The notes under the pieces: generated by a model
What the model saw: only the letters and a program-made list of their open reading frames with translations
Told to the model about the DNA's origin: nothing
Databases searched by the model: none
From: Alphaproteobacteria bacterium
GTDB taxonomy: Bacteria; Pseudomonadota; Alphaproteobacteria; UBA828
Direction of reading: 5' to 3'
Length of the DNA stretch: 64,000 bases
Assembly (NCBI GenBank): GCA_965214705.1
Contig: CBDCCI010000002.1
Span: 1,568,001-1,632,000 of the forward strand
Translations under genes and position numbers: made by a program
Part shown: positions 4,121-61,290 of the stretch, piece after piece
Numbering within the stretch: the stretch's first letter is position 1
Layout: each line of letters starts with the position of its first letter

Positions 4121-4999
4121 ATGACCGGGACCGCGTGCGACACGAACACCGTCACCCCTCTTCGCCAGCGCATGGAGGAGCAGCTCCGCATCGCCAATCT
4201 GGCCGCGAGCACGTCCAAGGCCTACATCTGCGAGATCAAGAACCTGGCCAGGTACTACGACGCCTCGCCGGACGAGCTCGACGCCGAGCAGGTGCGCCAG
4301 TGGTACCTGGGGCGGATCGACAAGGGGCTCAGTCCGGGCACGACCAACGTCTCCTTCGCCGCGCTGAACTTCCTCTACATCGACACACTCGGCTGGCCTG
4401 ACCATGTCGCCGGCCTGCGCTCCCGCAAGAAGCCCGGCAAGCTGCCGCGCTACATGTCGGAGCAGGAGGTCGAGCACCTCATCCTTGCGACACCCGACCT
4501 CCGCCACCGTGCTGCCATTGTCACCGGCTATGGCGGCGGGCTCCGCATCTCCGAGACCTTGGCCATCAAGGTCGGCGACATCCTGTCGGAGAAGAAGCTG
4601 CTGCACATCCCCTCCGGCAAAGGCGGCACCGAGAGAATGGCACCGTTGCCGGACATCGTCATCCACTACTTGCGCGTCTACTACAGGAACATCTGGCCGC
4701 GTCCGACGAGCTGGCTCTTCTACGGCGTCTCGCTCGACAGGCCCATCGCAACGGAGACCTTGCAGGCCGCCTTCAGGAGGGCGCGCGACATTGCCGAGCT
4801 CGACCGCAGCTACACCTTCCATTGCCTGCGCCATTCGGCGGCGACCCATCTCCTCGAGCGCGGCGGCGATATCGAGGTGATCCGGGACATGCTCGGCCAT
4901 CGAAGCGCGAACACGACCCGTCACTACGCCCGCGTCACCGGCAAGATGTTCGAGGGCCTCGACCACCCGATCTCAGGCTTCGCAGCGTTGCGCAACTGA
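4121..4999 (+). CDS. Tyrosine recombinase with N-terminal SAM-like domain
   Basis: GLRISE (R), SGKGG (K), HCLRH, LGH, TRHY (Y); ATG at 4121 after RBS GGAGA. Confidence 0.93.
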   Translation: MTGTACDTNTVTPLRQRMEEQLRIANLAASTSKAYICEIKNLARYYDASPDELDAEQVRQWYLGRIDKGLSPGTTNVSFAALNFLYIDTLGWPDHVAGLRSRKKPGKLPRYMSEQEVEHLILATPDLRHRAAIVTGYGGGLRISETLAIKVGDILSEKKLLHIPSGKGGTERMAPLPDIVIHYLRVYYRNIWPRPTSWLFYGVSLDRPIATETLQAAFRRARDIAELDRSYTFHCLRHSAATHLLERGGDIEVIRDMLGHRSANTTRHYARVTGKMFEGLDHPISGFAALRN

Positions 5000-25921: not shown

Positions 25922-27343
25922 TTAGTCGTAGTAGCCGTTATCCGCCATGATCTGGCGCTGCGCCTCGTCGATGTCCACGAGCGCCTCTTCCATGCCCTTT
26001 TCGCCCGCGATCACCGCGGCGACGTCGTTGCCGAGCGTGTCGGCGAGCGTGAAGGTCGGCGGCACCCAGACAAAGCCCGGCGTGCAGATCGGGATGGACC
26101 TCGCAAGCGCGTCGAAGTAGGGCTGCTTCTCCGCGTACTTGTTGAGCAGCGAAGTCCGCGCCGGCTGCCCGGCCGCGTTGACGAAGTCCTCGCCAATGCG
26201 GGTGTCGACGTAGTCGCCCGAGCTCATGTGCTTGACCCACTCGAACGCGGCCCGCTGGTCGTCGCCGAAGCTGTTGACGTAGAAGCCGAAGCCGCCCATC
26301 AGCGGTTCCTGCTTGCTGATCTCGGTCTCGCCGCCGGGTACGACATCCGAGCGGAAGTTCGCGTGGTGATCCGTGAAGTTGGGATCCTGCAGCACCGAGG
26401 TGCCCCACTCCATCGGCGCGAACACGGCGGAGCCCTTGGCGAGCACCGAGTTCGCCTCCTCGTCCGTCGCGTTCATCGTGATCGGGTGGCGATATTCCAT
26501 CAGCTTGAGCAGCATGGAGAACGCCTTGTGACCGATCTCGGTGTTGAACTGCGGCTCCCAGTTCTCGTCGAACCAGACGCCGCCGTAGGAGCGGATCATC
26601 TGGTAGAGCTCGAGGCCGGCGAAGAGGCCGCGGCGCCCGGTGGTGACGAAGCCGTAGATGTCGTTGTCAGGATCGTGCAGAGCCTTGCAGACCTCGATGG
26701 TCTCTTCCCAGGTCGTCGGGACCGAAGTGATGCCCGCTTCGTCGAACTTGTCCTGGCGGTAGTACATCAGCTTCGTGTTGCTATCGAAGGCGATGGAGGC
26801 GTGGTGGCCCTCCGGCGTCTGCGGGAAGTTGTAGCCCACGGTGACGTTGGCCGGGACATCGGCGTGGTAGTCGTCCAGCCAGCCCTGGTCCTCGGCGAGC
26901 CACTCGTCGAGGTTGAGCGGCGTGCCGATGGTGCCGATCGACGACATCACGTTGTGGTCGTTGATGGCGCAGTTGTAGGAGTCCGACTTGGACGCCGCGT
27001 AGACCTGCATCTTGGTGTAGGCCTCGCCCACCGGCTCCGCGATGATCTTCACATTGACGTTGGGGAAGCGCTCCTTGAAGGTCCCGACCACGGCTTCGAG
27101 CGGCAGGCCCCAGCGCTGGCCCGCGAAGGTGTAGGCCACCACGTCGCCCTCGAGGCTGTCGTCGGTGTACCAGCCGGGCCCGTTGGTGTCTGACGAGCGC
27201 GCCCACTTCGGCGCGACGCCGACGCCTGCGGCCGCAGCCATGGCTGCCGAGATCTGGAGCATCTGCCGGCGCGTGATCTTCGCCCGCATGTCACGCGCGT
27301 GCTGCATCGATTGCTTGTAGAGAGTCTCTCTGTCCGTACCCAT
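25922..27343 (-). CDS. Extracellular solute-binding protein (family 1), Tat exported
   Basis: ITRRQMLQ signal; MYYRQD, PTTWEE; RBS GGAGG. Confidence 0.88.
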   Translation of the reverse strand: MGTDRETLYKQSMQHARDMRAKITRRQMLQISAAMAAAAGVGVAPKWARSSDTNGPGWYTDDSLEGDVVAYTFAGQRWGLPLEAVVGTFKERFPNVNVKIIAEPVGEAYTKMQVYAASKSDSYNCAINDHNVMSSIGTIGTPLNLDEWLAEDQGWLDDYHADVPANVTVGYNFPQTPEGHHASIAFDSNTKLMYYRQDKFDEAGITSVPTTWEETIEVCKALHDPDNDIYGFVTTGRRGLFAGLELYQMIRSYGGVWFDENWEPQFNTEIGHKAFSMLLKLMEYRHPITMNATDEEANSVLAKGSAVFAPMEWGTSVLQDPNFTDHHANFRSDVVPGGETEISKQEPLMGGFGFYVNSFGDDQRAAFEWVKHMSSGDYVDTRIGEDFVNAAGQPARTSLLNKYAEKQPYFDALARSIPICTPGFVWVPPTFTLADTLGNDVAAVIAGEKGMEEALVDIDEAQRQIMADNGYYD

Positions 27344-40544: not shown

Positions 40545-41607
40545 TCACGGTTTCCCCCTGTGGGTCGGCGGCAGCGCCGGCGGGCCGCGCGTCGAGCGGG
40601 GCTCATGGCGGCGGCGGATTTCGCGGACGAGGCGCATGACGCCGCCGCAGTGGGGGCAGGCCACGGGCGCGGTGCCGATCTCGGGCTCTTCGTCGGGCTC
40701 GGCCTGAGCGCCGTCCACGCTTCCCTCGGGGGCGGCGCAGCCGAGGGCGCCGAGAGCCTGGCGTGCTCTCTCCAGCGTGCTGGCGCGGCAGCCGTTGGCG
40801 AGGATGCCGAAGTAGCGAGTGCGGTGCATGCCGTCCGGCAGGACGTGCCTCAGGAAGCGGCGGATGAACTCGTCGGCGCTCACGGTGGCGATGCCGTAGC
40901 GCGGCTTTCTCTGCCCCGGCGCCTTGGGCTTTCGGTGGCGGAAGGAGACCGTCTCGCCGTCGAAGGAGACGATGCGGCTGTCGGAGATGGCGATCCTGTG
41001 CGTGTAGTGCGAGAGGTACCGGAAGACCTGCTCAGGCCCGCGGAAGGGCCGCTTGGCGTAGACCACCCAGTCCCTGGCCCGGGCGGCGGCAAGCGTGGCG
41101 TGGAACTCGCCGGGATTGGCGAGGTGGGCGAGGGTGCCGTGGAACTCCAGGTCCCCCCGGCCGTGGGCGCGGGCGAGCTCCTTGAGGAAGAGGCGGCGGA
41201 ACAGGCTGCCGAGGACCTTGACGGGGGCGAGGAAGGTGGTGCTCCCCGTCTTCCACTCGCCACTGTCTACGTCGAAGCCCGCGTTGGGCACGACCACGTG
41301 CAGGTGCGGGTGGAAGCGGAGCTTCTGATCCCAGGTATGGAGGACCGCGGTGCCGCCGATGCGCATGCCGCCGTGGCGGGGATCGGCGGCGATGGTGCGC
41401 AGGGTCTCGGCGACGGCCCGGAAGAGGATGTCGAACACCACCCTGCGGTTGCAGAAGGCAATGGCGGCAACCTCCTTGGGCAGGGTGAAGACCACATGGA
41501 AGTAGGGCACCGGCAGGATGTCCCCGGCGCGCTCCTCGCTCCAGAGGTTGGCGGCGAGACCCTGGCAGGTGGGGCAGTGGCGGTTGCGGCAGGAGTTGAA
41601 GAGCGGA
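40545..41607 (-). pseudogene. IS91-type transposase, 3' part (intron-interrupted)
   Basis: PLFNSCRNRHC... as in copy 1, with a few substitutions (LEE>LKE, GTV>GTL, HRI>HRT, ARA>AQA). Confidence 0.92.
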
Positions 41608-42866
41608 GTGCGCCAGGCGAACTGGTGCGAGTGCAGTTGGTGAAAGTCCAACAGGAAGGAGAAGGTGAGCCACCACTTCCACCCCGAGTCATGGGCCGTC
41701 GCTCGCGAGGGCGAGGGTCAAGCGTTGACAGGGGCGCGTGTGGGCGGGGCTATTGAGCACCGAAAGAAACATCATCCGGGATGCCGAGGCTCTTTCGTTG
41801 GCCGAAGGTCGCATCTGGCCCACCGATATGGCGAGGGGGGTCTGAATCCCGCGGTGTCAGAGAACCCACGCACGTACGTACGCACTGCACCGGGACCTGG
41901 GAGGTCTCCATGTCATCCCGCTGAGTCGTGGCGGGAACGCTGAGGAAAGGAGGAGTCCGTAACCGAAGATGAACGACATGGAGAAATCAGACTCGGCCAT
42001 AGTGTGTGCTGGGCAGCGCCCAGATCAGGTGGGTTCAAGTCCCACTGGCGCTCGGGTAAGGGGCGCCATATCCAAAAGTGGGGGTAATTCCTCACTGGCC
42101 GGAGTGAGCCGATAAGCGAAACTCTAAACGGGCACGAAGCCGGAAACGGCGGAGACAGCCAAGGGAGGAGCTAAGTTGGTCCACTGTCGAAAGACAACCG
42201 GAAGGCAGGGTGTCCACCGCGAGGTGGAATCTGAAGGGCTTGCGGAGAAGTACCGGGCCGTAATCGAGGGGGCCACCCCATGATGAATCGGTCGGCCAAA
42301 GACGGGGCAAGGTCGAGCCGGCACTATGGCGGCGAAGGCGTTCTTACCCACCCGTCGCACCAAGGTGTTTGCGAGCGGCACGGTACGGAAGATCTGGACG
42401 TGACCCCAGGAGGGCTCGCCGCGTTCCCGGGTGGCACCGGGATAACGGACCCTATAAGCCGAAAGGCGAAATGGGAAAGGATGCGCGGCGAGCAATCGGA
42501 CAACCGAATAGTACCTGAAGCCCGGCGAAAGCCGGGTGACCGCGCGAGCGGCGGCCGTGTGGGCCGGGGAAGGCGGTTGGCAGAGGTGGTCGGCGAGAGA
42601 CAGCGATGAGTGAGTAAGGACCATGACGCGGACAAGTTCCTTGAGCGAAAGACCCGGACATCATGGCCCGAGGAGACTCATCGACTGGATCAACCCGGCG
42701 GGTGACAGGAAGGTCCACTCACTGGTGGACAAGGTGTACAAGCGGAAGAACCTTGAGGTGGCCTGGGAAAAGGTGAAGCGCAACCGGGGTGCCGGTGGCG
42801 TGGACGGAGAGGATTTAGCGGCGTTCGAGGCATCGCTGGATGCAAATCTCGATCGCCTGCACCGGG

Positions 42867-44545
42867 GGGTGTGATTCTCGTATGGCGATATGCCAGTCGT
42901 GATGGCGCTAAAGGATATGGGCTGGTTCATTTTGGTCAAGCAGCGAGTGCCAGGACTTCGGTTGGGCTGATGTTGTCGTTAGCTGGTCCGGATCGGGCGT
43001 CCATGAGCGCATCCCATGCCCGGTCGAAGAGGCCGGATTTGATCAGGGCGCGGAAGGTCAGAACCGCCTGCCCGCCGTCGATCCGCCAGCGCATGCCCGA
43101 GCGTTTCAAGCGCTGCGCGACGAGGGTCTTGCAGGCCGCCTCGACCACACCCGAGCCGATGGCGATGCCCTCTTCCTTCAGGGCGTGGTAGCGCATCCGA
43201 TGGCGGTGCTTTCGGAAGAAGGCCAGCTCGCGCTCGATCTCGGCCGGGTCCCCCTTTGCCCTGTCCAGGAGGTAGCGCAGTGCCCGGATCACCTTGTCGA
43301 CGCCGCGGGGGTCGTGGCGCAGGATTTCGCGGTGCTTCTCGAACCAGTGGCGCGCCACCGCATGGTCAGAGGCCACGCGGAGATGCTCGCAAGCGTGCCA
43401 GAAGTCGATGACCTCGGTCTCGGGCGAGAGGCTTTCGAGGAAGGTCCAGTTGTCGGCGGCCCCGTCGGCGACGGCGCCGATCCTGATCTTCGGGCTCACA
43501 CGGCGGATATGGGCGACCTCGCTTGCAAGTTGCGCTTTCAGCGCGGCCTTGCCGCTCTCGGGCATACGGCCGAGATAGAGGGTCTTCAGCCGTTGGCCCT
43601 CGGCGTCGTGGAAGGAGACCGTGCCGCAAGAGGCCTCGCGCCAGCACGCCTCGGCACGGCCGTCCTCGCCGGCCCGCAGCGCCACCATGACGCCGTCAAG
43701 GGAGACGGACGCGGTGACCGCATCGGGCGGTATGCCCTGGGTTTCACGGATGCTGGCCAGCGTCTCCGGGGCGACGCTCTCCCAGTGCTCATGCATGCTC
43801 AGGGCCAGGCGCTGCAGCGTGCTCACCGACGGCGTCATTCCGCCCATTTTCGCGAAGAACTCCTCCGCTTCACGCGGCGTACAGTGGCCCATCATCATCA
43901 GCCCGAGCTGCGCCGCCGGCCGCGTCAGGTAGTCGTCGATGAGGCCCAGGCTCTCGTCCACCGGCACCAGCGACGTGCTGCTCGCGCCGCTGCGATAGCG
44001 CGCACGCCGATAGGTCACGGGACCGAGCGTCGTCATGATCGTCTTCGGCGTCGCCGCCACCCGGACCCAGCTCTGTCCGTCGCGCTCGATCCGGCTCGCA
44101 CCGTCGTCGCGGCTCTCGGCGAAGGCCCCAAGGAGCTTGCAACCCAAGCCGTTCATGGCGTCCCGCAGCCCCGTCTCAACCGTTTCGAACGTCTCGGCAG
44201 ACGGGTCAGACCCAGCCTGTTCGCGACAGAACTCCACCACCTGGGCGACCGCTTCGGCGACTTCGGCAGGCAGGCCCAAAAGGTCGATGGACGAGGCGAT
44301 GAGAGACTGCGACACTGGCATGGGAACGCTCCTGATGTTGGGTCTGATGTTGGGTTGTCGGCGCGGCATCCTACCGCATCTCGCGGTGCGGAGCGTTCCC
44401 ACCCACCACTGCTGGATGCCGCCGTTGTGACAAAATCCGGCCCTGCACCGGCCGATTGTCACGAAAACCCGATTCTGGCTGCCTACGGCCACCCGCCAAT
44501 CGCGCTAAATCAATGACTTACGATCGCCATGCCAGACCTACACCC
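42867..44545 (-). mobile_element. ISKra4/ISLre2-type IS, copy 2
   Basis: 8-bp TSD GCACCGGG (42859-42866, 44546-44553); same IRs and ORF as copy 1. Confidence 0.94.
42936..44321 (-). CDS. DDE transposase (UPF0236 / ISKra4-ISLre2 type)
   Basis: Translation identical to 16511-17896. Confidence 0.88.
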   Translation of the reverse strand: MPVSQSLIASSIDLLGLPAEVAEAVAQVVEFCREQAGSDPSAETFETVETGLRDAMNGLGCKLLGAFAESRDDGASRIERDGQSWVRVAATPKTIMTTLGPVTYRRARYRSGASSTSLVPVDESLGLIDDYLTRPAAQLGLMMMGHCTPREAEEFFAKMGGMTPSVSTLQRLALSMHEHWESVAPETLASIRETQGIPPDAVTASVSLDGVMVALRAGEDGRAEACWREASCGTVSFHDAEGQRLKTLYLGRMPESGKAALKAQLASEVAHIRRVSPKIRIGAVADGAADNWTFLESLSPETEVIDFWHACEHLRVASDHAVARHWFEKHREILRHDPRGVDKVIRALRYLLDRAKGDPAEIERELAFFRKHRHRMRYHALKEEGIAIGSGVVEAACKTLVAQRLKRSGMRWRIDGGQAVLTFRALIKSGLFDRAWDALMDARSGPANDNISPTEVLALAA

Positions 44546-45718
44546 GCACCGGGAGTTGCGGGACGGTGAGTATCACCCGCAGCCGGTTCTCCAATGCCTG
44601 ATCCCCAAGGCGGGCCAGCCGGGGAAGTTCCGCCCGCTCGGCATCCCGACAATCTACGACCGGGTGTGCCAGCAGGCGCTGCTGAACCGGCTGGAACCGA
44701 TCTTCGAGCCGGTGTTCGACGATGCCAACTACGGGTACCGGCAAGGAAGGTCTGCCCATGGAGCGTTACGCAAGATATGGAGGGAACTGGACGAGGGCAA
44801 CGAGTGGGTTCTCGATGCGGATTTGAAAGACTTTTTCGGGTCCGTGGACCACGAAAAGCTCCTCGAACTCGTCAACCAGCGAGTCTCGGATGGCCGGGTA
44901 TTAGGTCTGCTCAGGCAGATGCTCACGGCCGGGGTGGTGGCCGACGGTAAGAGGCTGCCGACCGAACAGGGCACTCCGCAGGGCGGCATCGTTTCACCGC
45001 TGCTCAGCAATATCTTGCTGACCCCGTTCGATTGGGAAATGCGTCGTCGCGGCTATCGACTAACGCGATACGCCGATGATTGGCTGATCACGTGCCGCAC
45101 ACGCGGGGAAGCCCGCGCAGCACTGGAGACGGCCAGGCGGATTCTGGCAAAGCTGGGTGTGTCCCTCAACGCCGGGAAGACCCGCATTGTCCATGTCAGG
45201 CACGGGTTTGAGTTCCTCGGCTACAAGATCAAGCAGGGCGAGCGGCCTCTCCGGCTGTCGTCCTCCAAGATCAAGAGCGGGGTTCGCGGGGGAGCGCGCT
45301 ACGCGGTTCCGCGTGAGAAATCCATCCGGCACTTCAAGGACCAGATTCGCCAGCGTACCCGGCGCAAGGCTCCTGTCAGCACGCAGGAGCTGATTGACGA
45401 GATCAACCCGATCATTCGGGGATGGGGCCAATACTATTGCAAGGCCCACGTCCGCGGGCTCTTCCACCAGCTTGACGGCTGGATCGTGCGGCGGCTCTGG
45501 TCGCATCGTCGCAAGCGCTGGCGCAACGCTGGCTGGAAACAGTTGCCGGAGCGCAAGCTGATCGACGAATACGGGCTTGTTCGCCTGATCTCACTGGTTC
45601 CGTCCTTGAACCTTCGTTGAGACACCTTTGTGAAAGCGGCTTACGGGAAAACCGTACGGGCCGTTTGAGCGGCGGACGGAGGCTAGCCTCGCGGGGCGCC
45701 TCCTCCGACCCGACAGCG

Positions 45719-47158
45719 ATGAAGCCGGCGAACAATGGGGCACCTGCCCCGGCGGAGCCGGTGGAGCCAAGGGCCGAGCCCAAGGGGAATCTGGAAGGCC
45801 AAAGCACGCGCCGGACGCAGGACCGGGAGAGCGTGTCACAAGCGGCTGACCGGATACGGCAGTTTGTACAAAGGGAACCTGGGGTGCGTCTCACGACGCT
45901 CCTCCATCACGTCACGGTCGCTGCGCTGCGCTGGGCGTTCTTCGAGTTGAAGAAGGACGCTGCGGCGGGTGTCGATGGCCTGACGTGGCGGATGTACAAG
46001 GAAGGGCTGGAAGGCCGTCTCGCCGACCTGCACGACCGAGTGCACTCGGGGGCGTACCGGGCGACGCCATCACGGCGGGTGAACATCCCGAAGCCGGATG
46101 GCGGCACACGACCGCTCGGCGTCGCGGCCATAGAGGACAAGATCGTCCAGAAGGCTGTGGCGGAGATAATCCTGACGCCGATCTACGAGGCGGAGTTTCT
46201 GGGGTTTAGCTACGGGTTCCGACCCGAGCGTGGGGCGCACAATGCGCTCGATGCGCTGGCGGTCGGGATCGAAAGGCGCAAGATCAACTGGATAGTGGAC
46301 TGTGACATCCGCAAGTTTTTCGACACGGTTTCGAGGGACTGGCTGGTCCGGTTTCTAGAGCACCGGATAGGGGACAGGCGGGTTATCAGGCTGATTATCA
46401 AGTGGTTGAACGCTGGCGTCATGGAAGCTGGAGAGTGGCGTGACGACCTGCGGGGAACTCCGCAGGGTTCGGTGATTTCGCCGATCTTGGCGAACGTTTA
46501 TCTGCACTACGTCCTCGATCTTTGGTTCCAGAAGAAGTGGCGCAGCCACGAGGTCAACGGCGACTCGATCATCGTTCGCTACGCCGACGACTCTGTGGTG
46601 GGTTTTCAGCACGAGCAGGACGCGGAGTGCTTTCTGGAGGCCGTAAAGGAGCGGCTCGGACGCTTCGACCTGGAACTGCATCCCGACAAGACCCGGCTCA
46701 TCGAGTTCGGGCGGCACGCCATAGAGCGCCGCCAAGGCCGAGGGCAGGGTAGACCGGAGACCTTCGATTTTCTGGGCTTCACACACTACTGCGCGAAGAC
46801 CAGACGGGGGTACTTCATGCTGGGGCGCAGGCCGATGGCGAAGAGGATGGCCCGCACCCTGAAGCGGATCAAAGAGGTGCTACGCAGGCGGATGCATGAC
46901 AACATCGAGGATACGGCCAGGTGGCTGGGCAAAGTGGTGGACGGATGGCTGAACTACTATGCCGTCCCGACCAGCAGCCGGTACTTACAACGCTTCCTCG
47001 TCCGCCTAAAGCGGGTGTGGCTCGCCATTATACGCCGCAGATCGCAAAAGGACCGATTTACATGGGCCGACATCGACAAACTTAAAGCTCGACACTGGCC
47101 CAAGCTGAGAATCCGACACCCGTGGCCGGATCAACGACTAGCCGTCAGTTCGACCTGA
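45719..47158 (+). CDS. ltrA: Outer intron RT/maturase, intact, no endonuclease domain evident
   Basis: AAGVDG, IPKPDGGTRPLG, FSYGFRP, GTPQG, RYADD, FDFLGFTH, GWLNYY; alternative GTG start at 45833. Confidence 0.92.
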   Translation: MKPANNGAPAPAEPVEPRAEPKGNLEGQSTRRTQDRESVSQAADRIRQFVQREPGVRLTTLLHHVTVAALRWAFFELKKDAAAGVDGLTWRMYKEGLEGRLADLHDRVHSGAYRATPSRRVNIPKPDGGTRPLGVAAIEDKIVQKAVAEIILTPIYEAEFLGFSYGFRPERGAHNALDALAVGIERRKINWIVDCDIRKFFDTVSRDWLVRFLEHRIGDRRVIRLIIKWLNAGVMEAGEWRDDLRGTPQGSVISPILANVYLHYVLDLWFQKKWRSHEVNGDSIIVRYADDSVVGFQHEQDAECFLEAVKERLGRFDLELHPDKTRLIEFGRHAIERRQGRGQGRPETFDFLGFTHYCAKTRRGYFMLGRRPMAKRMARTLKRIKEVLRRRMHDNIEDTARWLGKVVDGWLNYYAVPTSSRYLQRFLVRLKRVWLAIIRRRSQKDRFTWADIDKLKARHWPKLRIRHPWPDQRLAVSST

Positions 47159-47235
47159 GGGAGGAGCCGGATGCCTTAGCGGGCACGTCCGGATCTGCGC
47201 GGGGGGAGCGGGGCAACCCGCTTCCCTACCGCGAT

Positions 47236-47420: not shown

Positions 47421-48299
47421 TCAGTTGCGCAACGCTGCGAAGCCTGAGATCGGGTGGTCGAGGCCCTCGAACATCTTGCCGGTGACGCGGGCGTAGTGAC
47501 GGGTCGTGTTCGCGCTTCGATGGCCGAGCATGTCCCGGATCACCTCGATATCGCCGCCGCGCTCGAGGAGATGGGTCGCCGCCGAATGGCGCAGGCAATG
47601 GAAGGTGTAGCTGCGGTCGAGCTCGGCAATGTCGCGCGCCCTCCTGAAGGCGGCCTGCAAGGTCTCCGTTGCGATGGGCCTGTCGAGCGAGACGCCGTAG
47701 AAGAGCCAGCTCGTCGGACGCGGCCAGATGTTCCTGTAGTAGACGCGCAAGTAGTGGATGACGATGTCCGGCAACGGTGCCATTCTCTCGGTGCCGCCTT
47801 TGCCGGAGGGGATGTGCAGCAGCTTCTTCTCCGACAGGATGTCGCCGACCTTGATGGCCAAGGTCTCGGAGATGCGGAGCCCGCCGCCATAGCCGGTGAC
47901 AATGGCAGCACGGTGGCGGAGGTCGGGTGTCGCAAGGATGAGGTGCTCGACCTCCTGCTCCGACATGTAGCGCGGCAGCTTGCCGGGCTTCTTGCGGGAG
48001 CGCAGGCCGGCGACATGGTCAGGCCAGCCGAGTGTGTCGATGTAGAGGAAGTTCAGCGCGGCGAAGGAGACGTTGGTCGTGCCCGGACTGAGCCCCTTGT
48101 CGATCCGCCCCAGGTACCACTGGCGCACCTGCTCGGCGTCGAGCTCGTCCGGCGAGGCGTCGTAGTACCTGGCCAGGTTCTTGATCTCGCAGATGTAGGC
48201 CTTGGACGTGCTCGCGGCCAGATTGGCGATGCGGAGCTGCTCCTCCATGCGCTGGCGAAGAGGGGTGACGGTGTTCGTGTCGCACGCGGTCCCGGTCAT
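47421..48299 (-). CDS. Tyrosine recombinase (copy 2, intact)
   Basis: Translation identical to 4121-4999. Confidence 0.93.
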   Translation of the reverse strand: MTGTACDTNTVTPLRQRMEEQLRIANLAASTSKAYICEIKNLARYYDASPDELDAEQVRQWYLGRIDKGLSPGTTNVSFAALNFLYIDTLGWPDHVAGLRSRKKPGKLPRYMSEQEVEHLILATPDLRHRAAIVTGYGGGLRISETLAIKVGDILSEKKLLHIPSGKGGTERMAPLPDIVIHYLRVYYRNIWPRPTSWLFYGVSLDRPIATETLQAAFRRARDIAELDRSYTFHCLRHSAATHLLERGGDIEVIRDMLGHRSANTTRHYARVTGKMFEGLDHPISGFAALRN

Positions 48300-58941: not shown

Positions 58942-61290
58942 ATGCTTCGGATCACCGGATACAGCGACCGCTACTCGATCCGTCCGGGCGATGACATCAC
59001 GTTCTATGTGAACTCCGAGAACGGCGAAGACTACGAGGCCAAGCTCGTCCGCCTGATTCACGGCGACACCAACCCCGACGGGCCGGGCTACAAGGAAGAG
59101 GAGATCGACGCGCCGTTCGACGGCAACTACACGGGGCGCAACCAGAAGATCCACGGCGGCTCCTACGTGATCGTGCCGCACAATGAGCGCATGTCCGTGT
59201 CGAGCTTCACCATCCAGGCATTCATCTTCCCGACCACGCCGACCAAGGGCCGCCAGGGCATCCTGACCAAGTGGGTGAACGACACCGGTTACGGCCTCTT
59301 CGTCGACGACGACGGCAGCCTCGCGGTCTGCATCGGCGACGGCAACCAGGTGCACAAGCTTTCGAGCGGCAAGCCGCTGCTGCGCAAGGTCTGGTACCTC
59401 GCCGCCGCCTCCTACGACGCCGACAGCGGCGAGGTGCGCCTCTACCAGGAGCCGGTGGTGACGTCCGCCAACGGCGGCCTTGGCATGGCGCTGCTGCATC
59501 CGGCGGAAGAGACCACGGCTGAGGTCTCGGACAGCTGCGACACCGGACCCGGGGCCAACGACGCGCCCTTCCTCATGGCGGCGTCGACGCAGGTCTCGGA
59601 TTCCGGCCGCTCGATCTGCGGCGCGCACTACAAGGAGGCGCTGACCCCGGTGGGGCTGCCCGAGCAGTGCGACACCTACAACGGCAAGATCGACCGCCCC
59701 CGGCTCTCGGACGCAGCCCTCGGCAAGCACGAGATCGACGCGCTGGCGCGGGGCTTCAAGGGCTGCCCGGCGGACCTGCGCCGGAGCGTGGTGGGCGCCT
59801 GGGACTTCCAGGCCAACATCACCAAGCACATCTCGTCCTCCTACATCATCGACACCTCGCCGAGCGTGTTGAACGGCTTTGCGATCAACCTGCCGGCGCG
59901 CGGCATGACCGGCTACAACTGGACCGCGGACGAGATCGTCTACCACCACGCGCCGGAGGAATACGGCGCGATCCACTTCCACGACGACGACATCGACGAC
60001 GCCCGGTGGGACGCGGACTTCAACTTCACGGCGCCCGAGGGGCTGAAGAGCGGCTTCTACGCCGCGCGACTCCGCATCGGCGGGGAGGAGTCGTCGGCGA
60101 CCGAGGACTACATCCCGTTCGTGGTGCGCCCGCCCAAGGACCAGCCCTCGGCGAAGGTCGCGGTGATCATCCCGACCAACAGCTACCTCGCCTATTCCAA
60201 CGACAACCTGGCGACCAACTCGGTGGTGGCGCAGCTCCTGGCCGGCAAGGTGCCGCTGATGCAGGCCTCCGACCTCTACCTCAACGAGCACCGCGAGTAC
60301 GGGCTTTCGACCTACTCGCTGCACTCGGATGGCAGCGGCGTCTGCTACTCGTCGCGGCTCCGGCCGATCCTCAACATGCGGCCGAAATACCGGCACTGGC
60401 TCTCGCCCTCGCTCTGGCAGCTCAACGGCGACCTGCACCTGACCGACTGGCTGGAGGCCGTGGGCTTCGACTACGACCTGCACACCGACGAGGACCTGGA
60501 CCGCGAGGGCGTGGCGCTGCTCAACCAGTACCGCGTGGTGCTCACCGGCTCGCATCCGGAGTACTCGTCCGAGGCCATGATCGACGCCTATGAGGCCTAT
60601 CAGCAGCAGGGTGGCCGCTGGCTCTACCTCGGCGCCGACGGGTTCTACTGGTGCAGCCAGTACCACCCGGACAACGGCAACATCATCGAAGTGCGCAAGG
60701 GCGAGGCCGGCACCCGTGCCTGGACCGCCAATCCCGGCGAGTACAACAACGCCTTCGACGGCAAGTTCGGCGGCATGTGGCGGGCGCGGGGGCGTATCCC
60801 GAGCAAGGTCTGCGGCCTCACCTTCACGGCCTACGGCTTCGACGTCTCCTCCTACTACCAGCGCGAGCCAGACAGCTTCCGCTCCGAGTGCGAGTGGATC
60901 TTCGAGGGCATCGGCGATGACGAGATCATCGGCGACTTCGGGCTGGTGGGCGGTGGCGCTGCGGGGCTGGAGCTCGACCGCTACGACCTCGAGTTCGGCA
61001 CGCCGCACCACGGCTACCTGCTCGCCCGCTCCGAGGGCCACACCGACCTGATGCTCCAGGTCAACGAGGAGATCCACTTCGCCTGCCGCGGCTACTACGG
61101 CGGCGGGCACGAGAACCCGCAAATCCGGGCCGACATGATCTATTACAAGACGCCCAACGACGGCGCGGTGTTCGGGCCCGGCTCGCTGGTCTGGTGCGGC
61201 AGCCTGTCGCACAACAACTACGACAACAACGTCTCTAGGATCATGGAGAACGTGATCAACGGTTTCCTCAAGGACGGGCCGCTGCCCTGA
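58942..61290 (+). CDS. N,N-dimethylformamidase large-subunit-like metalloamidase
   Basis: ITGYSDRYS, LVRLIHGD, YGAIHFHDDD, SYLAYSN, GLSTY, TGSHPEY, GGAAGLELD. Confidence 0.88.
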   Translation: MLRITGYSDRYSIRPGDDITFYVNSENGEDYEAKLVRLIHGDTNPDGPGYKEEEIDAPFDGNYTGRNQKIHGGSYVIVPHNERMSVSSFTIQAFIFPTTPTKGRQGILTKWVNDTGYGLFVDDDGSLAVCIGDGNQVHKLSSGKPLLRKVWYLAAASYDADSGEVRLYQEPVVTSANGGLGMALLHPAEETTAEVSDSCDTGPGANDAPFLMAASTQVSDSGRSICGAHYKEALTPVGLPEQCDTYNGKIDRPRLSDAALGKHEIDALARGFKGCPADLRRSVVGAWDFQANITKHISSSYIIDTSPSVLNGFAINLPARGMTGYNWTADEIVYHHAPEEYGAIHFHDDDIDDARWDADFNFTAPEGLKSGFYAARLRIGGEESSATEDYIPFVVRPPKDQPSAKVAVIIPTNSYLAYSNDNLATNSVVAQLLAGKVPLMQASDLYLNEHREYGLSTYSLHSDGSGVCYSSRLRPILNMRPKYRHWLSPSLWQLNGDLHLTDWLEAVGFDYDLHTDEDLDREGVALLNQYRVVLTGSHPEYSSEAMIDAYEAYQQQGGRWLYLGADGFYWCSQYHPDNGNIIEVRKGEAGTRAWTANPGEYNNAFDGKFGGMWRARGRIPSKVCGLTFTAYGFDVSSYYQREPDSFRSECEWIFEGIGDDEIIGDFGLVGGGAAGLELDRYDLEFGTPHHGYLLARSEGHTDLMLQVNEEIHFACRGYYGGGHENPQIRADMIYYKTPNDGAVFGPGSLVWCGSLSHNNYDNNVSRIMENVINGFLKDGPLP

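Follow-up and report, generated by a model that had tools for sequence, protein, structure and literature searches.

The 64,000-nt window analysed here, a stretch of the genome of an alphaproteobacterium of the UBA828 lineage, contains on its + strand a three-level nest in which an outer group II intron (41608–47235) encloses an inner group II intron (42004–45714) and the latter an insertion sequence (IS; 42867–44545). We consider it likely that the inner intron belongs to a lineage whose speciality is to retrohome into other group II introns, at the DNA copy of a conserved motif of their ribozymes. As judged from the order of the domains, the target appears to be AUAGUA, a conserved 5' internal loop in domain III; in the window, this domain is split by the inner intron.

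The last seven nucleotides before the inner intron are CCATAGT (41997–42003), intron-binding site 1 (IBS1), and their exact reverse complement, ACTATGG, is found at 42323–42329 within the 9-nt loop of the hairpin GCCG-GC-ACTATGG-CGGC (42317–42333, + strand; stem 42317–42320/42330–42333). This perfect complementarity, on which the preliminary description of the stretch was built, is read directly from the sequence. Across both strands of the whole window the 7-mer has three matches versus 1.77 expected, two of the three being the loop and its target; since such a match alone is weak evidence, the pairing was tested by comparison. A search for relatives of the inner reverse transcriptase (RT) returned 63 loci of 50–93% identity from Nitrospirales, Alphaproteobacteria, Thermodesulfobacteriota, Gemmatimonadota, Entotheonella, Acidobacteriota, Planctomycetota, Chloroflexota and others, and the intron's 5' end was mappable in 35 of them. 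In the alignment of 15 nt of exon and 400 nt of intron from the window and these 35 loci (alignment A1; 36 members, 35 distinct rows), 94.7% of the exon/loop cells pair and two-sided changes occur in six of the seven pairs; the hairpin stem, which covaries as well, is 99.3% paired. The values observed for the seven exon/loop and four stem pairs together were reached by none of 500 shuffles, and sliding the partner by one to three columns left 25–57% of the cells paired versus 96.4% in register. Retargeted members combine the 5' exon TACGGTGG with the loop CCACCGTA (locus L034), GCATGGT with ACCATGC (L030), CCAAAGT with ACTTTGG (L026), CCATGGT with ACCATGG (L041 and L042) and GTAAT with ATTAT (L016 and L017). 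Exceptions to the match are L054 and L055 with one mismatch each and L024 with two. On this comparative evidence the ACTATGG loop can be assigned as exon-binding site 1 (EBS1), as the preliminary description had supposed. The eighth pair counted there, G41996–C42330, should probably be omitted, C42330 being part of the hairpin stem (alignment pair 370:380, with 17 two-sided changes). That the complementarity is fortuitous and the loop no exon-binding site at all might be argued from the shortness of the 7-mer and its near-chance frequency, and from the match of the Rfam model RF02001 over the hairpin, which is non-significant in the window copy (E 0.56); this weak alignment places the EBS1 hairpin on the corresponding hairpin of the model. 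Against such a coincidence, which we regard as extremely improbable, all 21 copies in the genome follow TAGT, and the exon/loop covariation refutes it for practical purposes.

A second pairing involves the first base of the 3' exon, A45715. Its partner is U42368 (+ strand), assigned as EBS3, which represents the only alignment column pairing with the +1 base in 31 of 31 sequences; the match is retained in the retargeted loci L034 (A with a +1 T) and L030 (C with a +1 G). The base 5' of EBS1 is a C and unable to pair with the +1 A. A single-base EBS3 pairing with position +1 implies exon recognition of the IIB type, and Pfam reported no endonuclease domain in the inner RT. The inner element is therefore best described, from its sequence, as a putative IIB-type, endonuclease-less, RT-encoding mobile group II intron. 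An assignment of the class from solved structures was also attempted; the best relatives of both the inner and the outer RT are IIC-type RTs, which does not settle the class.

The structural context of the target emerged from the hosts. Because a single-sequence fold of the host target region was no better than shuffles (z −0.46), comparative folding was used, based on 15 hosts of the type recognised by the Rfam model RF02005 from which the inner intron was excised where present (counts on 14; L089 dropped). These hosts share a layout consisting of a 10-bp stem, a linker AAUC(A/G)GA, a helix P1, an internal loop (C)AUAGUA(G/C)C..GAA, a helix P2 and a distal hairpin. The 10-bp stem of domain II is paired in 132 of 134 cells with compensatory changes in eight of ten pairs, P1 in 82 of 91 cells with compensatory changes in all seven pairs, and P2 in 79 of 84 cells with compensatory changes in all six. 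In the outer intron of the window, domain II (41905–41984, + strand, delimited by the host covariation) is closed by the stem 41905–41914/41975–41984, which encloses GGAAAGGAG and an ATG at 41970, and is followed by the J2/3-like linker AATCAGA (41985–41991), which is kept as AAUC(A/G)GA among the hosts and as AAUCGGA by the inner family. The 5' half of domain III (41992–42003) comprises the 5' strand of P1, CTCGGCC (41992–41998), and the start of the loop, with IBS1 at 41997–42003. The 3' half (45715–45778), beyond the inner intron, comprises the rest of the loop (AGCGATGAA), P2 (45724–45729/45757–45762), the distal hairpin (45737–45750) and the 3' strand of P1, GGCCGAG (45772–45778), as laid out by the host alignment. 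Removal of the inner intron (42004–45714) restores P1 and the loop, CAUAGUAGC, base for base as found in uninterrupted hosts.

The same motif is present in a curated RNA model. The consensus of RF01998 shows a hairpin, a linker, a small hairpin and GcC-AUAGUA-gccgcc...ggcggc-GAAG-GgC, and in an intron of L015 devoid of an open reading frame (ORF) RF02001, a model of domain I, is followed in order by RF01998, about 215 nt and domain V. The two main helical elements of RF01998, located between RF02001 and domain V, thus presumably correspond to domains II and III. The inner family has the layout of domain II, AAUCGGA and domain III in common with the hosts, with a domain IV stem next. In the window copy, the RNAalifold consensus of 18 members defines domain II (42413–42493, with compensatory changes), the linker AAUCGGA (42494–42500) and domain III (42501–42579), all on the + strand; domain III is formed by P1 (42501–42506/42574–42579, compensatory changes at three of six pairs), the 5' internal loop AATAGTA (42507–42513) and a P2 carrying a GAAA tetraloop. 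Directly after domain III a domain IV stem, read by eye, joins 42581–42588 with 45623–45630 and closes just before domain V. The inner intron's own version of the target motif, which the preliminary description had noticed at about 42506, is indeed found at 42506–42515 (GAAUAGUACC/GAATAGTACC) in the homologous loop. The same description had located the insertion towards the end of domain I, whereas the order of the domains puts it in the 5' internal loop of domain III. A reading in which the insertion hits domain IV, outside the ribozyme, at codon 12 of the host's RT ORF was dropped after the host alignment, the RF01998 consensus and the fold of the inner family had been obtained. A duplex search for a domain IV stem in the outer intron gave no crisp helix.

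Nevertheless, the target region is not free of coding potential, and the inner intron could be a parasite of RT genes which recognises, within domain IV, a conserved stretch coding for the N-terminal motif SDSxIV of other intron-encoded proteins, in the manner of the Thermosynechococcus twintrons. The longest outer ORF begins at ATG 41970, and when the inner intron is removed the frame, followed across the junction, reads MNDMEKSDSAIV continued by AMKPANNG. Junction peptides of hosts of the RF02005 and RF02003 types share (K/E)S(D/A)xxIV(A/P)xKxxN, and several differences between host types fall on third codon positions (TCA/TCT, GAC/GAT, GCG/GCA). We consider this explanation unlikely. The same nucleotide motif is non-coding elsewhere: in a further intron family of the genome, here termed family X, in-frame stops are present and the motif precedes the ATG by about 27 nt; in the RF01998-type hosts L027 and L038 it is likewise interrupted by stops; and the inner family has it in a frame other than that of the RT ORF. 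Moreover, the motif forms the loop of a curated RNA consensus, its flanks form helices with compensatory changes, and a domain IV stem lies downstream. Uninvaded relatives in other genomes retain RTAGTA in four of four cases, i.e. the codons ATA or GTA followed by GTA, and both ATA and GTA are expected to be disfavoured in such G+C-rich DNA. The earlier idea of a specialist on intron RNA structure rather than on RT genes thus stands insofar as the target is a conserved RNA motif, non-coding in at least three intron types; it has to be qualified insofar as the outer RT frame also crosses the site. Since the long N-terminal extensions annotated for many intron RTs overlap domains II and III, "inside the RT ORF" and "inside the ribozyme" may be one and the same place.

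The RT frames of the RF02005-type hosts are relevant here in their own right. In the window (41970–42003 and 45715 onward) and in L075, L076 and L080–L082 the longest RT frame begins at an ATG within domain II, after GGAAAGGAG, and continues through J2/3 and domain III, so that an "N-terminal extension" of about 90 amino acids overlaps covarying ribozyme helices. An alternative start is a GTG just before RT block 0 (...MRLTTLLHH).

The insertion sites of the family were tabulated, as the preliminary description had proposed for homologous 5' exons, in the genome itself (7.9 Mb, three contigs, 66.8% G+C) and in other genomes, and introns were hit in 17 of 21 and 26 of 30 cases, respectively. 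Within the genome the inner intron has 21 5' ends and 20 3' ends with 14 distinct 5' flanks. TAGT closes all 21 of the 5' exons, and A is the first base of all 20 of the 3' exons; position −5 is occupied by A in 15 copies and by G in six, both of which pair with the U of EBS1. The 17 copies located inside other group II introns occupy at least nine host sequence types, which either share 46–100% identity with the outer RT or represent different Rfam domain I types. Eleven of these reside in relatives of the outer intron, namely five in type A (100% identical), two in type B (ca. 69%) and four in type C (ca. 65%). The other six are recognised as intronic by an upstream Rfam domain I match (RF02005 in three, RF02003 in one), by a downstream RT gene or by a downstream domain V match. 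Two hosts of type B and two of type C carry the identical target uninterrupted. The four copies without a surrounding intron are all inserted at ectopic sites reading CGTAGT upstream and A downstream of the junction. One of them (L010; G000 C3 2019164–2021187) is inserted antisense in an ORF of 597 amino acids, between ...AAACGTAGT and ATTCG; with this orientation splicing is impossible and the gene is disrupted. The ORF presumably encodes a protein resembling hydantoinase B/oxoprolinase.

The enrichment inside introns could be a mere by-product, if a few chance insertions were copied along with whole twintrons or if other insertions were lost by selection. All five of the 100% identical type-A hosts carry the inner intron, and ectopic insertions do exist (four of 21, including the antisense one in the hydantoinase-B-like gene). 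The genome contains 211 unoccupied C[AG]TAGTA[CG]C sites, compared with about 149 expected from base composition. A J2/3-like motif is present upstream of 14 of them; the other 197 offer the core only, while the occupied sites consist of the 17 intronic and the four ectopic ones. Either more than IBS1 and IBS3 (the 9-nt core) may be read, or ectopic insertions may be purged; the 197 empty core-only sites fit purging by selection as well as extra recognition, and the two are not separable. In contrast to what a by-product would predict, nine different host sequence types are occupied in the genome, and the insertions in other genomes fall at the homologous site in 26 of 30 loci and in three ribozyme types. 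In addition, the inner copies are 97.8–100% identical to each other, although their hosts are only 46–70% alike, which argues for recent independent insertions by the logic applied by Mohr et al. to T. elongatus. Finally, EBS1 changes follow changes of the host domain III within one genome (see below). Enrichment as a by-product is thus very unlikely, and specialised retrohoming into the ribozyme motif remains the preferred explanation.

Two side observations concern the genome. In the window itself, unoccupied CGTAGTA(C/G)C sites are present at 4251–4259 (− strand), 25927–25935 (+), 48161–48169 (+) and 61091–61099 (−), with 0.21 expected; the sites at 4251 and 48161 have identical 69-nt contexts, which indicates a second copy of the integrase gene adjoining the IS91 element. 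The above-mentioned family X consists of seven copies (G000 C1 349203, C1 2991710, C2 460145, C2 574546, C2 688816, C2 489943 and C3 57104) whose RT shares ca. 37% identity with the inner RT. Neither of the copies scanned (L077 and L078) gave an Rfam match; one of the seven is invaded by the inner intron, and the target, CTCGTAGT followed by AGTCGG, is common to the copies read.

In other genomes both ends of the insertion were mapped at 30 loci. At 17 of them an RT gene lies just downstream on the same strand, and nine of the remaining 13 have a match to group II domain I or domains II–III just upstream, which places 26 of 30 inside introns. The hosts belong to three ribozyme types, characterised by RF02005, by RF02003 and by RF02001 plus RF01998. 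L034, about 1.5 kb downstream of domains I–III of another intron, is uncertain, and at L024, L028 and L030 neither a downstream RT nor an upstream domain I or II–III match gave evidence for an intron around the insertion. Relatives in many phyla therefore seem, by their flanking sequences, to live mainly inside other group II introns. A search with the host RT over 401 genomes of the phylum matched ten other genomes, a number too small to census the motif without bias.

The relation between EBS1 and the family's own version of the motif was evaluated in 33 of 35 members, L045 being dropped because of a gap in EBS1 and L072 because its motif could not be located. Each of the 33 has a domain III motif (mostly GAAUAGU) that mismatches the EBS1 of the same intron, at two or more positions in 31; on average there are 2.33 mismatches versus 0.39 for the real 5' exons. 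Position −6 is mismatched in 29 of 33 own motifs versus three of 33 real exons, and in the window copy GAAUAGU mismatches EBS1 at −6 and −7. In line with the prediction that the inner intron does not invade itself by virtue of these mismatches, none of the 21 copies in the genome is interrupted at its own domain III. The complementary phenomenon, an adjustment to a changed host, is visible in L015 and L026, which belong to one genome: two near-identical hosts differ at position −4 (CCATAGT versus CCAAAGT), and their inner introns differ at the matching base of EBS1 (ACTATGG versus ACTTTGG). An unoccupied ORF-less intron with CCAAAGT is also present at L015 4805–5389.

What is established for endonuclease-less group II introns suggests the following scenario. 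A particle of intron lariat and RT would base-pair with one strand of the target DNA, EBS1 (ACUAUGG, 42323–42329) contacting the seven nucleotides upstream of the site and EBS3 (U42368) the A downstream of it; the intron RNA would then reverse-splice into this strand and be copied into DNA. As the host ribozyme constrains the motif, and selfish elements present in multiple copies serve as hosts, such a landing site would be both renewable and harmless. The insertion cuts domain III of the host in two and, because the longest outer RT frame overlaps the target region, splits that frame too, so that the host should work only after the inner intron has been excised; given the divided domain III, the earlier suggestion that the outer ribozyme folds only once the inner one is spliced out is plausible. 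In the window copy the inner RT gene is itself broken, and splicing or movement would need an RT/maturase supplied by the approximately ten intact full-length (2024-nt) copies elsewhere in the genome.

Several points weigh against this interpretation. Spread as complete twintrons may account for the five identical type-A hosts, in which case the 17 intronic copies represent fewer independent events. One copy (C1 511638) has a G–G mismatch at position −6 and is occupied all the same. The members of the family are related, and the 33 cases of self-avoidance are not independent observations. No EBS2 was found: neither among 6-mers complementary to exon positions −8 to −24 nor in the d2 region did domain I offer a consistent partner. 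The naming of the domains relies on their order and on an Rfam model without domain labels. RF02005-type hosts have the site in an open frame with the conserved peptide (K/E)S(D/A)xxIV(A/P)xK; conservation at the protein level contributes and is not fully separable from that at the RNA level. The IS has destroyed the inner RT gene of the window copy, and RF00029 gave no match at E ≤ 1 for its domain V; homologues of the inner intron do reach the gathering score of this model. Finally, no contig joins 42003 to 45715 in three RNA-labelled runs and one unlabelled, DNA-like run, of which the RNA-labelled ones (0.17–0.28 of sampled words) come from relatives and, being available as contigs only, have a depth uninformative on expression.

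In a broader version of the proposal, the AUAGUA loop would be a weak point of several bacterial group II intron classes exploited by one cosmopolitan hyperparasite lineage across classes and phyla. We regard this as a serious possibility, though one still slightly short of probable. It would be in keeping with a lineage which protects itself by the altered positions −6 and −7 of its own loop, whose matching EBS1 changes appear to follow escape mutations of the host, and which may have made splicing and mobility of the host dependent on its own excision.

The anatomy of the inner intron (42004–45714, + strand) is defined by 21 5' ends and 20 3' ends in the genome with identical termini. A base-by-base comparison with an intact copy gives a length of 2024 nt for the latter and of 3711 nt for the window copy, which has the IS inside. 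The intron starts with GTGTG at 42004, in agreement with the GUGYG consensus, and the 3' junction lies between 45714 and 45715, with CCGAC before and AGCG after it; the 3' end is ...CCGACCCGAC, with a bulged domain VI adenosine 7 nt from the end. The inner RT/maturase, 436 amino acids in the intact copy of L009, is divided in the window into a 5' part (42623–42866, + strand; identical to the intact copy up to 42866) and a 3' part (44546–45620, + strand; RVT_1 2.6e-40, GIIM 7.9e-20). Domains V (45634–45666) and VI, the latter with the bulged A, together span 45634–45714 (+ strand) in the RNAalifold consensus of 13 family members, in which the domain V stem covaries and carries an AGC triad and a 2-nt bulge. 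In the 5' part of domain I, the segment 42040–42056 (GGTGGGTTCAAGTCCCAC) resembles a tRNA T-arm and is conserved in the family in alignment A1.

The IS breaking the inner RT gene is 1679 bp long (42867–44545, − strand; boundaries from the comparison with the intact copy) and lies between the two copies of an 8-bp target duplication, GCACCGGG (42859–42866 and 44546–44553). It has imperfect terminal inverted repeats and a transposase resembling Pfam PF06782 (UPF0236; 4.6e-8). About 30 near-identical copies are found in the genome, and contigs lacking the IS join 42858 to 44546. The same IS also interrupts further inner-intron copies at different positions.

The outer intron (41608–47235, + strand) extends from GTGCGCC at 41608 to ...CGCGAT at 47235. 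Rfam detects RF02005 at 41643–41866 (172 bits) and RF00029, covering domains V and VI, at 47162–47235 (36 bits, short of the gathering score of 40). Both ends are fixed by a contig of the unlabelled, DNA-like run X21, in which 41607 is joined to 47236 and the 5628 nt skipped are bounded by GT..AT; this contig thus also contains an empty outer-intron site. Downstream of the insertion the outer RT/maturase ORF occupies 45719–47158 (+ strand; RVT_1 1.1e-35, GIIM 1.1e-6). The gene invaded by the outer intron codes for an IS91-family transposase (40545–41607 and 47236–about 47420, − strand) with the Pfam domains Y2_Tnp and Zn_Tnp_IS91, whose frame is unbroken across the removed intron (...CEGCGREHPLFNSCRNRHCPTCQG...). 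As the outer intron is antisense to this gene, its splicing from the transposase mRNA is impossible. Other type-A host copies are preceded by ...GAGCGGA, GGGAGCGGG or GGGTGCGGA.

Group II introns are thought to be ancestral to spliceosomal introns and serve as programmable tools for gene targeting. The reading of a constrained ribozyme loop shows a way for a retroelement to secure an inexhaustible and harmless homing site, and it implies a parasite-on-parasite relation with apparent self/non-self discrimination and covariation between host and parasite. The lineage offers a testable system for the splicing order of bacterial twintrons, for the tolerance of domain III to change and for the relation between hyperparasitism and intron load. 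If the broader version holds true, the cross-class lineage could act as a natural brake on the proliferation of group II introns in bacterial genomes.

It is already established that some introns have evolved insertion at a conserved site within other mobile introns (PMC2882425, PMC4424553). The literature searched contained no description of a domain III loop target, of several host ribozyme types or phyla, of a self-avoiding loop or of host/EBS1 covariation in one genome; a prior description may exist. RmInt1 in ISRm2011-2 of Sinorhizobium meliloti (PMC1802570) is likewise an endonuclease-less bacterial intron homing into a multi-copy mobile element, but its target is an insertion sequence and not an intron ribozyme. 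The mat1f twintrons of Porphyridium purpureum (Perrineau et al. 2015; PMC4476101) share the occurrence of one mobile intron at the same site of two outer introns and, in addition, in an ordinary gene; they differ in being plastid-borne and in having the target in domain IV. In Trichodesmium erythraeum (Pfreundt and Hess 2015; PMC4649490) a bacterial inner intron likewise interrupts a ribozyme domain of its host, and sequential splicing has been demonstrated; there, however, the inner intron resides in domain I at a single locus and does not represent a lineage with a conserved target. The nested introns of Methanosarcina acetivorans (Dai and Zimmerly 2003, as summarised in PMC4424553) similarly enjoy a perpetual homing site without harm to host genes, but occur in an archaeon, home into related intron ORFs, by the title of the report, and reach up to five nesting levels.

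A close parallel is provided by Thermosynechococcus elongatus (Mohr, Ghanem and Lambowitz 2010; PMC2882425), where TeI3 (F3) is found inside TeI4 (F1) at a site near the start of the outer RT ORF and where an IS has likewise entered one TeI4 intron. The inner introns of T. elongatus are ORF-less close kin of their hosts and occupy, in this one genome, a domain IV site flanked by the first two ATGs. The inner intron of the window, by contrast, encodes its own RT, is inserted in the loop of domain III and has relatives in at least three host ribozyme types and in many phyla.

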